Below are positions 13,381 to 52,117 of a DNA stretch of 64,000 nt, piece by piece. The stretch's first letter is position 1, and the number at the start of each line of letters is the position of its first letter. A model generated the notes under the pieces. The model ran no database searches and was not told the origin of the DNA. It saw only the letters and a list, made by a program, of their open reading frames with translations. This DNA is from Eledone cirrhosa (lineage: Eukaryota), in assembly GCA_964016885.1 (NCBI GenBank), contig OZ024742.1, positions 242,606,001 through 242,670,000 on the forward strand, written 5' to 3'. Made by a program: the position numbers and the translations under genes.

Positions 13381-13673
13381 GAAAAATTCGGGACCCCGAC
13401 GGCTGAGCTCCGGCCGTTTCAACAGCTAGATCCGAATACGAGTTCGGATCTAGCTGTTGAAACGACCGGAGCTCAGCCGTCGGGGTCCCGAATTTTTCAT
13501 ATTACCCACTCTACTACCCCAAGTATCGAGCACTCTCAAGAGTAATGATCTAACTGGTCTAACAGCATTTAATAAATATTGCTTGTACAGGTAATCAAAG
13601 TATGTATGTACTTTTGGGGGACATCCTGCTCATATATGAATGTATAGTATGTTGTTTAACTGTTATGATTTCC
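13381..13673 (+). mobile_element. Penelope-like hairpin-plus-tail insertion (family B)
   Basis: ~56-bp inverted arms at 13381-13498 carry the 3' half of an HHR (GAAACGGC..GCCGTC-GGGG). Related to 5699-5760, 16810-16960 and 45061-45268. Confidence 0.7.
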
Positions 13674-13795
13674 TATATATATATTTATAACCATAAATGT
13701 TAACGCTATATCATAAACAAACAAAATGACTCCAAGCCAACACTAACCACGCACCTGATCAATTACCGTTCATACATCTATACTCAGTCTAACCC

Positions 13796-14205
13796 ATCAT
13801 ATGGGTTGAAATGTTCCTAGACTGACTTTGAAGGAGTGATGCTAGAGCTGTTAAATCTTACAAGCACTACTTTTAACTCTTGTTATTAATAAATGTCTTG
13901 TTTCTCTCCAGGTAAACTGACATATGGCTGTTCAAAGAAGATTTCTAAAGTAACTAGTAGCTATTCCTCTTTAAAATGGACAAAATTTGGCATCGTGGCG
14001 TTATCAAACACCTACAGAAAAAGGATTTAACCTCCAAGGACATTCATGCTGACATGGAGATGACACTTCAGTTTTATAAACGGTGCAAAAGTGTGAGGCT
14101 GAATTTAGGAGAGGAAGGGATAGTCTTGAAGATGACCCAAGATCTGGACTTCATGCGACTGCTATCATCGAGGGAAATATTGATACAGTTCACCAAATGG
14201 TGATC
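13796..14205 (+). mobile_element. Mariner/Tc1 transposon 5' fragment
   Basis: MDKIWHRGVIKHLQKKDLTSKDIHADM at 13976, with frameshifted ..SLEDDPRSGL.., resembles the mariner transposase N-terminal HTH. Confidence 0.75.
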
Positions 14206-15062
14206 GTTGGCAGGTGATTATATATATATATTATTTTACTCTCTCTCTCTCTCACTCCTCTCTTTCTGTCTCCTTCTCACACATCCTTCTCTCTCTGGCC
14301 GTTATGGAAATTACACACACACACACACACACACACATGCACGCACACATACACACACAAACACATACACACACATATACACACGCACATACACATACAA
14401 TCCCATAACGTCGTGTTGTGGAAGGTGGAGAGTTAAGAAGTGTATAAAAGAAACGCTCTCTCTCTTTATGACCGTCAAGGAATTTATTAGTGCAAAAGTC
14501 TATAAGATTATAAAATCGAAGTTTGTGACTTCGAAATTAATCATTATGAAATAATTTTTTCTTGATGTTACAAACCGTAGCCTATTTTGGCTATGTGTTT
14601 AATTTGACAGAGATCGATGGAATATTTTCCAAGTGAAACTCTTTTACACACACAGAACGAGAATTATATATAAGATATATATATATATATACATACATAC
14701 ATACATATATATATATATATATATATATATATATATATATATATATATATATATATATATATATATATATTTACATATACATATATATTAAGAACAGATT
14801 AAAGTTTATAATAATTATTTGCTCTACGGATGTATGAAATCCTCATCGAGCGCTCTTCGGATTTTAGTCTTCACATTTACACATTTATTATTACTCTATA
14901 TATATTTCTAATACACACACACACACACACACACACACACACACACACACACACACACACATATATATATATATATATATATATATATATATATATATAT
15001 ATATATATATACGATTTTTGAATGCGGTAAGAATTTCTTTCTTATATCAAAGTTTAATGGGC

Positions 15063-15187
15063 TTCCACTGATGATTTATAAGCGCCCACCTAAATATATT
15101 CTTACATGAATATATATTAGGCTTCTACATAAACTGGAAATATTCTCCCAACTTGTAAAAAACTTACAATGAAACAATTGTTTGGAA
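15063..15187 (+). ncRNA. Type I hammerhead with a ~96-nt branched stem II (copy 1)
   Basis: TTCCA-CTGATGA-TTTATAAG...CTTACAAT-GAAA-CAATTG-TT-TGGAA. Confidence 0.78.
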
Positions 15188-16057
15188 AGAGAGATATACT
15201 TTAACTTTAATTATATCTCATAAAATAATACAACTGGTTTTTCCACATTATACATATTGTTAGCACCCCAAACACTTAAATTGAGTTTATATTTAAATAT
15301 AACCTAATGTTTGTTGAATGAGATGGTTACCAGTCAGAGTTTAGCTTTAAACTATCTCTGTTATTGTATTAAATATTTACTCTTGATTGGCCAGAGGTGT
15401 TTATTTCCAGGTACCTTATGAATTTGACTTTCCGTATTTATTACTGTTGTGAAATGTTGGGGTTTTTTTTTGTTGTAACTTCCCTGATTTTTAGCCTAAG
15501 AAAATATATACATGCCTATGTATATAATTACATGCATACATTTATTTTCTTTAATTAATTGAGTTCTTTACACGAGGAATTGATATTAGTTTTGAAATAA
15601 CTAATTAACCCGCGTGTGTTTTATATTTTACTCTTAATTCGGCCGGAGATTTACATTCCCATTTGCCCTTTAAAGCATAACTCTCTGTATTTACTGCGGT
15701 TATGAGATGCGGTTCTTATTCGGGTACAACTTCTGATTTTAGCCTAAGAAAATATCTATATGCGTGTGTAATTTATACACGCATATATTTATTTTTTTTA
15801 TTTTCAATTGAGTTCTTAACACGTTGGATTGATAATGTTTTCGAAAAAATTAATTAACCCGCGTGTATATTATTTTTTTCCTCCTTTCGTGGATCGTAGT
15901 TGTCTCCCCTTCCCGCTTCGTGTCGCTATGATACTTCCTCAGTCAAAAACTGCTGGAATTCAAATTTCGCGATCATTCGATGCGGGAAGGAGCAACTTAA
16001 CAAACACGATTTTTGACTGCGGTAAGAATTTATTTCTTATATCAAAGTTTAATGGGC

Positions 16058-16182
16058 TTCCACTGATGATTTATAAGCGCCTACCTAATTATATTCTTAC
16101 ATGAATATATATTAGGCTTCTACATAAACTGGAAATATTCTCCCAACTTGTAGAAAACTTATAATGAAACAATTGTTTGGAA
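16058..16182 (+). ncRNA. Type I hammerhead with a ~96-nt branched stem II (copy 2)
   Basis: TTCCA-CTGATGA-TTTATAAG...CTTATAAT-GAAA-CAATTG-TT-TGGAA. Confidence 0.8.
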
Positions 16183-16434
16183 AGAGAGATATACTTTAAC
16201 TTTAATTATATCTCATAAAATAATACAACTGGTTTTTCCACATTATACATATTGTTAGCACCCCAAACACTTAAATTGAGTTTATATTTAAATATAACCT
16301 AATGTTTGTTGAGTGAGATGGTTACCAGTCAGAGTTTAGCTTTAAACTATCTCTGTTATTGTATTAAATATATATATATATATATATATATATATATATA
16401 TATATATATATATATATATATATATATATATATA

Positions 16435-49525: not shown

Positions 49526-49879
49526 GAAATATTCCTACTGATTTTATTAATGAAACTTTTGCCCTAAACTACAATTTAATCTCATATTTATAATATTGCT
49601 TCTAAATTTAATGAATCAAGTACAAAACTGAATCATTATTTGAATTAAGATAATATTTAAAATTGAATTCTTACATATATGAATGCATGTACATATGTGC
49701 GGATGTGAAGGGCATCTGGTGATGTATACATAGATCTGTATATGTATTTTTGTGCAGAATGCAGTCGGTTTTTTTTCACCCAATATATATCCCCCCTCAC
49801 ATTTTCCTCCCATTACTCCCCATTACTCTCCTTTGCACCATCTCTTCCCCCTCTCTCTCTTTCTATATATATATATACA

Positions 49880-51250
49880 TACACATTCGGTATACAAGAA
49901 TGCAATCCACTTCTAGCACTCAATGTCATATTACTATAAAACAAGGATGACGGAGTATATTAATAAATAGGGAAATGCAAAGTTGAAGATGTTAGGGTCC
50001 TTTATTAATTGAGCCGTTATACATATTTCAATGACGATAGATATCGTGATTTCTTCAGACAACAAAAATTGATTAATAGGTAACATTTCCGAGGCAATAT
50101 AGAGAGTCATATATATATAAATGTAAAAAAGAATTATAGAGAGTGAATGTGAGGAAATGCAGGAAAAAAACGCAGAAAAAAAATATCTCTGTAATTCTTT
50201 TTTACATTTATATGACATTTATATGATTCTCTATAACTGGCCCTCACTCAAACATTTATCACGGATTTTTATTTCCATTTTTTTCCTGCATTTCCTCTCA
50301 TTAATTCTTTTTTTTACCTTTTTTTACTTTTATAAATATATATTTTTTCCTTTATTCTCTTTATAATCCCATTTTTCCCGTTCATCCTTACTCATTTGTA
50401 CCTTTTCTTACATTTTTCCTTAAATCATTAATGTATCATTTGTCTCCACCAGATTGACCAGATACCAACTACTGGATTATTTATTTCTTACATTCGTTAC
50501 ATTAGATACTTTAAATATTGCCTGCCATCCTCGACAAGAGGCCAGTTTCTTCCATGGGCGGTCATAAGAAGTTAATATCCAACTCTGAACCCAATCTCTT
50601 ATACGAATATACACTTTGCCAGTTAGATTTTATTCTTATCATATTGACTGTTGTCCAGTTTCCCTGACTTCTAAATTTTAACTCTTAACGTCTGAATTCT
50701 AAAAAATATATTTTTTTTTTTTGGGGGGGGGGGGTTCGGGTTGTGAAACCTTTAATATTTTCTATAAGTTATATTAACCATAGCAGTAGGTAACTTTCCC
50801 AATTTGGGGTTGATGGTCTGTATATTATCCAGCGGGTTTGAATGCACTAAATTCTGCTGGCCACCAAAGCTAGTAGTGAATACATTTTGGCTCGTCTGAA
50901 CTCCCATTCACCTTATAGAGTTGTCGACCGAGGTGGTGGGGGACTGGTAGATGGAGAGAACAAATAAGGTTGGTGGTATTCTTGGTTGTAGTTGAGTGGT
51001 CAGCCACACACATATAATTAAGCAAGGTTGTCGGGGTATCCTGAAAATGTACAAGGGAGCGGGTACTCAAAGCAAAAAAATACACATTTTTTTTAGTCCG
51101 CTCCCTTCCACCCAAAATTGCTTCGGAAATGTTACCTTTTAATCAATGTTTGGTCTCTGAAGAAGTTACGATATCTATCGTCATTGAAATATGTATAACG
51201 GCTCAATTAATAAAAGACACTAACATCTTCAACTTCGTATTTTCCTCTTT
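49880..51250. mobile_element. Penelope-like element with ~130-bp diverged inverted termini, each carrying an HHR
   Basis: 49966-50098 is inverted relative to 51117-51250. Confidence 0.72.
50014..50062 (-). ncRNA. Type I hammerhead; degenerate partner at 51153-51201 (+)
   Basis: TTGT-CTGAAGA-AATCACGATA(TC)TATCGTCATT-GAAA-TATGTA-TA-ACGG. Confidence 0.68.
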
Positions 51251-51314
51251 ATATATATATATAAAATAAAATAAAATAAATAAGTCAAATATTTAAAATT
51301 TGGCATCGTTTATT

Positions 51315-51369
51315 ACTGCTATATATATTTCGGTGACAGCCATCTTTGGCTGTGACCTCTTCAGGCAGT
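51315..51369 (-). ncRNA. Type I hammerhead (mirror copy)
   Basis: Reverse complement of 51840-51894. Confidence 0.88.
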
Positions 51370-51839
51370 CCGAATTTGTGTGGAAGAGAGGAGTTCACAT
51401 GTTGTTGAGGTGTTTAACTTTGTCAATACTCTGATATGCCCAGTTCCTGGTTGGGTCGTTATTTCACTGAGGAACTGGAATCATATGAATTTAAACAAAC
51501 GAATTTCAGCGTCAAAGAAGATCTTCTCCTCCCATTGGTCAGTTGTGAGAACATTCCTCAGTCAAAAGTCTATAGAAATTCGTTCTGAGGCGAGGCAATC
51601 TGTAGTGGTTGTTCTTGTTATTGTTAAGTACATCTGACCTCTACTCTTATGTTGGTAGTGGTGTTGGTGTTGGAGTCAGCTAAAAAAAATGATAAAGTGG
51701 TAGAAGGAATAAGATGGTAAAAGAACAAAATAAAATAAGATAATCAAATAAAATCTGTGTGTGTTATACCCAATCTCAATGTTAGAAAGATTTGTAAGGT
51801 CACTCCTCCCATTGGTCACAACTGACCAGTAAACTTCGG

Positions 51840-51894
51840 ACTGCCTGAAGAGGTCACAGCCAAAGATGGCTGTCACCGAAATATATATAGCAGT
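51840..51894 (+). ncRNA. Type I hammerhead with a canonical core
   Basis: ACTGC-CTGAAGA-GGTCACAGCCA(AAGA)TGGCTGTCACC-GAAA-TATATA-TA-GCAGT. Confidence 0.9.
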
Positions 51895-52117
51895 AATAAA
51901 CGAAGCCAAATTTTAAATATTTGACTTATTTATTTTAGTTTATTTTACATTACTCCGGAGTAACCAAACCAACCTGCGCACTTCGTCGAGTGCTCCAATC
52001 TGCATACTCAGGTGTTGGTAGACAACCATTATATATATATATATATATATATTAGAAAGTGAGTTTTTTGGGGTTTTTTAAATGAAAAATAACTGAGGTG
52101 TCCTACACGAGTGAAAG

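Follow-up and report, generated by a model that had tools for sequence, protein, structure and literature searches.

Copies of Hydra-clade Penelope-like elements in Eledone cirrhosa mostly end at putative starts of reverse transcription, a few bases upstream of either of two tandem bulged hairpins

The analysis of a stretch of 64,000 nucleotides of the Eledone cirrhosa genome (GenBank assembly GCA_964016885.1, contig OZ024742.1, positions 242,606,001 to 242,670,000 of the forward strand; the window, from here on) disclosed a common rule for the ends of a group of repeats embedded in (TA)n. Judging from their sequence, these repeats are 3' fragments (pseudo-long terminal repeat (pLTR), hammerhead core and tail) of Penelope-like elements (PLEs) of the Hydra clade inserted in (TA)n. 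Two bulged hairpins lie in tandem, and the copies appear to break off a few bases upstream of the one or the other; it is probable that each hairpin docks one reverse transcriptase (RT) unit that starts cDNA synthesis from the cut (TA)n. The order of the parts, as read from the sequence, is hammerhead core, site A, hairpin 1, spacer, site B, hairpin 2 and the ATG of the open reading frame (ORF), where site A is the element/(TA)n junction located 4-12 nt before the bulged hairpin 1, and site B is the end of the tail. The hairpin descriptor consists of RCTC, an upper stem, a UN bulge and GAGY. The source genome (3.0 Gb) is rich in AT and microsatellites.

An original prediction, made from the letters of the window, held that in each two-copy element one copy carries the tail with the hairpin, the other ending just upstream of it. 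The ten coordinates that it cited are real, all of them lying at, or no more than 7 nt from, the computed junctions. In six inverted pairs of the window, the partner copy halts 6-9 nt ahead of RCTC, the distances between the junction and the R being 9 (13499 to 13508), 8 (45187 to 45195), 7 (37405 to 37398), 7 (46331 to 46324), 9 (49965 to 49956) and 6 nt (about 51946 to 51952, or 11 nt if the anchor slips in the T-run); the distance is 4-10 nt in the family referred to as family A, and 6 nt (15373 to 15379) in the pair located at 15/16 kb. The statement holds for the hairpin families but is too wide for "each" two-copy element, since tailed inverted elements of other PLE groups do not possess the motif; one of them, located at 23853-24072 of the window, belongs to a PLE family outside Hydra (ORF type L122, L125, L138); it is tailed and head-to-head, lacks the RCTC hairpin and has two fixed ends too. 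The elements of the window are the following:

13381..13439, minus strand: tailless A-ended arm that abuts (TA)n at 13380; part of a hammerhead (stem II 3' strand, GAAAC, stem III)
13440..13558, plus strand: arm carrying the tail, whose end is decayed in the window; hairpin 1 at 13508-13531, preceded by junction A at 13499
45061..45266, plus strand: head-to-head pair; A-ended arm from 45061 (minus strand); hairpin 1 at 45195-45218; B end at about 45266
37317..37597, minus strand: very young family, B-ended arm with B at 37317; hairpin 1 at 37398-37379; A at 37405; hammerhead core from 37505
37598..37789, plus strand: A-ended partner of 37317..37597; hammerhead core at 37690, then (TA)n
46243..46361, minus strand: short arm ending at B (46243); hairpin 1 at 46324-46300
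46380..47530, plus strand: long A-ended partner; hammerhead core at 47431; 60-bp tandem array within the 3' untranslated region
49878..50098, minus strand: B-ended arm; hammerhead core from 50058; hairpin 1 at 49956-49918
51117..51249, plus strand: A-ended partner; hammerhead core at 51157
51264..51377, minus strand: A-ended arm; hammerhead core from 51364
51832..52029, plus strand: tail-bearing arm; hammerhead core at 51845; hairpin 1 at 51952-51991
5467..5600, minus strand: family A, B-ended arm; hairpin 1 at about 5553-5508; partner 5601-5664 (plus strand) ending at A
6232..6332, no single strand: family A pair; A-ended arm 6232-6298 (minus strand) and tail-end stub 6299-6332 (plus strand)
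24273..24871, plus strand: family A pair; 13-nt A-ended stub at 24273 (minus strand) and long B-ended copy; hammerhead variant at 24729
15011..16371, plus strand: direct partial tandem of a hammerhead-bearing unit of about 995 nt; ends at A (16368); candidate long-loop hairpins from 15379 and 15630
52052..52401, no single strand: additional head-to-head A+B element, missing from the original prediction; variant hairpin, ACTC at 52112 (minus strand)

In the family A copy of 24273..24871, RCTC is located at 24801 and the 3' half of the hairpin is deleted. Other copies of the tail that begins at 13499 run about 80 nt further and then enter TA. The tails are mostly 60-110 nt long, some reaching about 170 nt. 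At 13430-13450, the centre of the palindrome coincides with a long hammerhead stem II whose loop varies among copies, which suggests that this palindrome was joined through a natural stem. The 60-bp array within the 3' untranslated region of the long arm (46590-47063) counts 7.9 copies with 99% identity.

The pair at 15376 and 16371 was likewise cited in the original prediction: its end lies indeed 6 nt before an RCTC-like site, but the arrangement is a direct tandem of the unit of about 995 nt and the hairpin is a candidate long-loop one only. The same retrozyme-like unit, with two candidate long-loop hairpins about 250 nt apart, is also present in tandem arrays at G000:C2:73036874-73040040, and no B-type end was seen in its 15 loci. 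This family resembles the non-LTR retrozymes (bioRxiv 10.64898/2026.07.22.740005) in being a hammerhead-bearing tandem unit, and it shares the A-type end; the words "hairpin", "tail" and "initiation" are absent from the available text of that preprint.

An unbiased set was built from 119 stretches of 10 kb chosen by position (1.19 Mb). These stretches and the window contain 508 inverted repeats, 112 of which have one end flush with (TA)n and an extension of 25-200 nt at the other, and which fall into 44 clusters. The strict hairpin descriptor matches the first member of 13/44 clusters (shuffle mean 0.08, maximum 1 of 300) and 39/112 elements, 32 of the 39 at offsets 6-9; the clusters without hairpin include motif variants, noise and tailed families that belong to other PLE groups. 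Over the whole 1.19 Mb, the motif matches 83 times, vs. 5-13 in block shuffles. Junctions were then mapped in every copy of 14 hairpin families (119 stretches), excluding 76 alignment ends without adjoining TA: 67 of the 142 (TA)n junctions are at A, 59 at B and 16 elsewhere. Once the reference loci are removed, 113 junctions are left (50 at A, 46 at B and 17 at other positions), so that 96/113 are at A or B, vs. 9% expected for uniform ends. The sharp peak near the hairpin that had been predicted was thus found, and a broad distribution was not seen. When the young 37.4-kb family was searched for with its body alone, 36/36 ends of the top 30 loci are at A (16) or B (20); 30 loci retrieved with another query were left out of the counts because that query included the tail.

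The AU-rich patch originally predicted at the junction is also supported. The mean microhomology at the junction is 2.8 nt, vs. 1.1 expected (22 families, p=0.0015), and in the four window families with read-through a TA-like overlap of 2-4 nt at A and of 2-3 nt at B can be observed; moreover, a TAT/ATA patch is located at positions -10 to -4 in 56/70 distinct hairpins of related elements retrieved from metagenomes, vs. a background of 20%.

The structure of the motif is suggested by the covariation of its stems. In the 17/44 clusters that could be anchored by sequence alone, the first three pairs of the upper stem are Watson-Crick in 46/51 cases, vs. 22 when permuted, and this pairing is obtained only if the bulge measures 2 nt, the first being U. 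Covariation is also seen in the lower stem (ACTC/GAGT in 8 cases, GCTC/GAGC in 7, GTTC/GAAC in 2). In the hairpins of the metagenome relatives, G-U pairs prevail over A-C ones (13 vs. 4, p=0.025), which favours the sense strand. This bears on the possibility that the hairpins act in DNA, i.e., that they are recognised, within a longer cDNA intermediate, by the endonuclease (EN), whose cut a few bases upstream would make A and B resolution sites. The near-palindromic motif and its fixed offsets would suit a nuclease, PMC8557442 ascribes the tail to EN-mediated resolution, and PMC11167929 cites the tail of the D. virilis element as required for the recognition of plasmid DNA by EN. However, both the G-U excess and the one-sided bulge speak against the recognition of a duplex (sense single-stranded DNA would still be compatible), and the same two positions are in vitro RT starts in the anole element of PMC11167929; on the whole, a DNA-level cut seems unlikely.

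Relatives of these elements were retrieved from metagenome contigs by an alignment-based scan, which yielded 77 related loci, whereas the scan with a single protein as the query gave no matches. The structured motif is located upstream of the ORF in 33/65 loci, while it was found in 0/65 antisense and in 0/66 ORF-internal controls (shuffle mean 0.3). According to the sequence anchors, 29 of 50 non-redundant loci harbor at least two motifs, 14 harbor one and seven none, the shuffle mean for two motifs being 0.003; where two motifs were called by structure, their spacing is 54-83 nt. With the loose, sequence-only descriptor, the antisense control had at least one match in 22/50 loci and two matches in 2; this control is not clean because the motif is nearly palindromic. 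The 5' and 3' regions can be compared in 35 contigs, 13 of which end at the contig edge and eight read through; in the 14 informative ones, 11 natural 3' ends stop 0-5 nt (alignment end) before a hairpin, six at hairpin 1 and five at hairpin 2.

On the basis of the metagenome motifs, a hairpin 2 after B was predicted in the window families and then searched for genome-wide in read-through copies. In these copies, a second hairpin is located 6-9 nt past B and is followed by the ORF. In the 37.4-kb family (33 matches), it lies nine nt after B in 8/8 loci read; in the 45.1-kb family (386 matches), six nt after B in 6/8 loci, the ORF beginning 94 nt after B; in the 46.3-kb family (291 matches), eight nt after B in 8/8 loci; and in family A (403 matches), six nt after B in the two loci read of four retrieved, one of which has a stem deletion. 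Reversed-pattern controls for these searches gave 0 matches. Most of the listed read-through rows share a single continuation leading to ATG; since the search patterns required a CTC after B, other continuations are possible. Altogether, hairpin 2 was found after B in 4/5 window families tested, each continuing into a Hydra-type ORF, and it was also seen by eye in L047, L037 and L077. Since hairpin 2 follows B, both ends obey one rule and the tail corresponds to hairpin 1 plus the spacer; the original description of the tail copy as the one carrying the hairpin was right as far as hairpin 1 is concerned, but incomplete, as the tail end has a second hairpin of its own. The motif anchors are short and the examples of the original prediction had been selected, so that AT-rich sequence close to microsatellites might have given spurious motifs and junction peaks by chance. 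Such an origin is refuted by the shuffle, register, antisense and ORF-internal controls, and by the fact that the second hairpin was first predicted and then found, which leaves chance with hardly any credibility.

The two arms of a pair tend to end at different sites. Head-to-head pairs are of the A+B type in 12/12 cases in the 37.4-kb family (one of them being that of the window) and in 7/7 cases among 20 loci chosen for long reading frames, that is, in 19/19 pairs chosen regardless of their ends (p ~2e-6 vs. independent choice). In the random set of 39 pairs, 33 are A+B, and if one discovery pair per family is removed, 19 are A+B vs. 4. Motif-less families also pair A+B (18/19, discovery pairs counted), and the coupling is therefore not unique to Hydra. 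The tail can be found on either arm. Since the hammerhead cores fix the sense strand, with the 3' ends pointing outward, the pairs are head-to-head, and the tail-to-tail geometry originally proposed has to be abandoned.

The arms of one pair differ by 0-2.2%, vs. medians of 2.4-8% to other copies, and are closer to each other than to the median other copy in 7/7 loci; this fits one source transcript, and gene conversion as well. Near-identical arms would also be obtained if a single cDNA folded on itself and was copied outward, the short end being a second-strand stop that anneals to the other (TA)n end. The centres of the pairs often coincide with natural hairpins (in the 13.4-kb family, with hammerhead stem II), both arms halt at -189 to -215 from hairpin 1 in 6/11 loci of the 37.4-kb family, and PMC3846280 proposes self-priming on an antisense template. 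However, in L182, L184, L193 and L195 the tail-bearing short arm holds sequence missing from the long arm; the two arms are therefore separate cDNAs, which simple folding back cannot give. Furthermore, single A-only and B-only insertions both exist and the second hairpin at B would be left unexplained, so that this origin appears improbable. In the young family (window 37590-37610; L218, L227, L228, L242), arms often stop near -200 and small templated insertions are present at the centre; the shared stop is perhaps the 5' end of the RNA or a pause site. In L242 (G000:C3:35284540-35284896), a sequence of 16 nt recurs, inverted, in the two flanks outside the TA tracts.

The same two sharp ends would be expected if the RNA was cut or terminated just upstream of each hairpin and priming occurred at true RNA 3' ends, as in long interspersed nuclear elements, and RNA-seq read ends at the initiation sites are reported in PMC11167929. 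In this case, however, the templating piece would lose the hairpin; the main product of the anole element is not moved by added 3' sequence (PMC11167929); and the hammerhead cleavage site is located upstream of A, not at A or B, so that hammerhead cleavage was rejected as the origin of either site. RNA processing seems, accordingly, a rather remote explanation.

We infer from sequence, instead, that A and B are RT starts, and that two enzyme units carry out a twin priming. According to this scheme, the element RNA would fold both hairpins and two protein units, likely a dimer, would bind to it, one per hairpin. Their GIY-YIG domains would cut both (TA)n strands, and each target 3' end would be placed on the AU patch that lies 5-11 nt upstream of a hairpin, from where its extension would proceed toward the 5' end of the RNA, one RNA templating both cDNAs. 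If both primers were extended, the cDNAs would meet head-to-head, often at a shared stop or through a natural hairpin, and the product would be an inverted element in which one arm carries the tail; with one primer extended, a single copy with or without the tail would be formed. A precedent exists in a Poseidon element, for which PMC11167929 describes two internal RT starts bounding the tail and the extension of both strands, and predicts a dimer.

Some observations weigh against this reading. In the junction set, 17/113 junctions fall outside A and B, and the median microhomology is zero in 5/22 families; in the 51.9-kb family, 4/4 loci end right after ACTC, without read-through; 7/50 metagenome relatives have no motif and 14/50 a single one; and the 39 random pairs include 3 A+A, 1 B+B and 2 with an unclassified end. 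Folding alone backs the hairpins in some families only, and the pairing probability is near zero in the 46.3-kb family and 0.3-0.4 in the family referred to as H1; given this uneven support, the case for the hairpins rests on covariation. If one RNA templates both cDNAs, the B cDNA must traverse hairpin 1 and displace the A cDNA. The anole element starts its cDNA in an AC-rich stem-loop lacking homology to the target (PMC11167929), and the evidence gathered for the Hydra elements is at the level of sequence.

The assignment of the repeats to PLEs, already put forward in the original prediction, is supported by the hammerhead cores and by the read-through into Hydra-type ORFs. A putative hammerhead core (CUGANGA..GAAA or the CAGAAGA variant) was recognised by pattern upstream of A, on the same strand, in six window families; the 13.4-kb and 45.1-kb palindromes contain half of a core only. 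One hairpin family reads through into an ORF whose intact copy, L173, is 712 aa long and contains RWK, DKT, a CxCX5C linker, and CxxC plus CxH in EN, without CCHH; a GIY-YIG-like motif was read by eye. The Pfam search with the Hydra ORF matched no family, GIY-YIG included, and no match was obtained in the sequence search of solved structures. The L173 model (predicted local distance difference test, pLDDT, 89.8) has telomerase reverse transcriptases (TERTs) as best fold matches, and L173 has 1196 homologues among 8000 scored candidates. The ORFs of the four read-through window families are 37-48% identical to L173; RWK and DKT are present in the 45.1-kb family, an RWK-type motif and DKS in the 37.4-kb one, while in the copy read of the 46.3-kb family DKT is present and RWK is not. 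The start of the ORF resembles that of Hydra-1_Obim by eye. pLTRs, partial tandems (with a spacing of about 3.54 kb) and inverted 5'-truncated copies are present. No piece of the ORF of these elements is located within the window.

The hairpin-family ORFs have no significant similarity to other PLE ORFs in terms of pairwise identity. Neptune, Nematis and Naiad were discarded, as their CX2-5CxxC finger, CCHH and N-terminal EN (Naiad) are absent from L173; features of this type were found in the ORF of the L122 type, which goes with tails devoid of the hairpin, and the tailed families without the motif accompany unrelated PLE ORFs, the read-through of the non-Hydra tailed family being a single locus. 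A miniature inverted-repeat transposable element (MITE) or another DNA transposon was ruled out, on account of the asymmetry of the ends (A+B) and of the RT ORF into which the arms run.

The Hydra clade described in PMC8557442 shares RWK, DKT, CxCX5C, a C-terminal GIY-YIG without CCHH and a hammerhead in the pLTR, as well as (TA)n targets, an inverted 5'-truncated copy and an often one-sided tail; it differs in its tails of 30-40 nt, vs. mostly 60-110 nt here, which are ascribed there to EN-mediated resolution. The hairpin was seen by eye in 3/6 new Hydra consensi of that paper, i.e., the coral Hydra-2_Amil and the sea cucumber Hydra-1_Ajap (two copies before ATG) and Hydra-2_Ajap; a variant is present in Hydra-1_Crog, Hydra-1_Obim is unclear and the region is absent in Hydra-1_Amil. 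The words "hairpin" and "stem-loop" do not occur in the main text of PMC8557442. In PAc, the Poseidon element of Anolis (PMC11167929), the tail is likewise delimited by two internal RT starts, cleavage and extension affect both strands of the target, which is AT-rich, and a dimer is predicted; PAc, however, belongs to another clade and starts inside the ORF in one AC-rich stem-loop, target homology not being reported in the available text, whereas here both sites precede ATG, each upstream of its own motif copy and with TA overlap. Adineta vaga Penelope (PMC3846280) has head-to-head inverted pLTRs, which are the most frequent arrangement there, with an optional tail on one of them and palindromes at the inverted junction; the difference is that the structure is explained by antisense-template self-priming, and a hairpin at the 3' end is not described in the available text.

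It is known that in L1 twin priming each of two target 3' ends serves as the primer of a cDNA and the two cDNAs join head-to-head, the second primer annealing at variable internal sites and copying a non-overlapping region. In the elements analysed here, the two sites have fixed positions, separated by 55-180 nt, and the same upstream region would be copied into both cDNAs. One-sided PLE tails, inverted copies, hammerheads, (TA)n targeting and two internal RT starts are known already, while a twin hairpin or its duplication was not described in the literature searched, whose scope ran outside Arkhipova 2006, the Repbase entries and the supplementary figures of PMC11167929. These repeats thus represent a known class and clade with an apparently undescribed duplicated cis-element.

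Both PMC8557442 and PMC11167929 describe the origin of the PLE tail and of the inverted structures as unresolved. A duplicated motif predicting both ends would account at once for the tail, for its presence on one side and for the head-to-head join, making an open mechanism testable, with the hairpin as a named cis-element for mutation. It is quite possible, though we advance it tentatively, that the RNA of the whole Hydra clade carries this duplicated bulged hairpin and loads two RT units per RNA, each starting from one end of a (TA)n double-strand cut, the tail and the head-to-head structure being the result of twin priming at fixed sites, and that other PLE clades may do likewise with motifs of their own. 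The RTs of PLEs are the closest relatives of telomerase, and an RNA hairpin fixing the start of copying therefore bears on how RTs came to internal templates. The motif is also usable as a sequence marker of predicted Hydra-element ends; many of its 83 matches belong to short palindromes, which might be catalogued as MITEs or microRNA (miRNA)-like hairpins. The Rfam search of the palindromes found no hammerhead and only sub-threshold miRNA-like matches.

In family H1 (L047:3340-3450), a possible splice donor before A and an acceptor just after B delimit a candidate intron across the tail. In a hairpin-less tailed family (L036:7013-7931), CAGCCG is located 13-18 nt after both end sites and might be a repeated motif of another kind. 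As for the rest of the window, the region 19400-23440 contains the remnant of a Helitron Rep/PIF1 helicase; broken ORF pieces of non-LTR retrotransposons (RVT_1, zf-RVT, DUF6451) are located at 1232-4075, 27168-29323 and 45531-46253; and a 40-nt inverted element flanked by TA tracts, with two relatives in L191, lies at 33957-33996.

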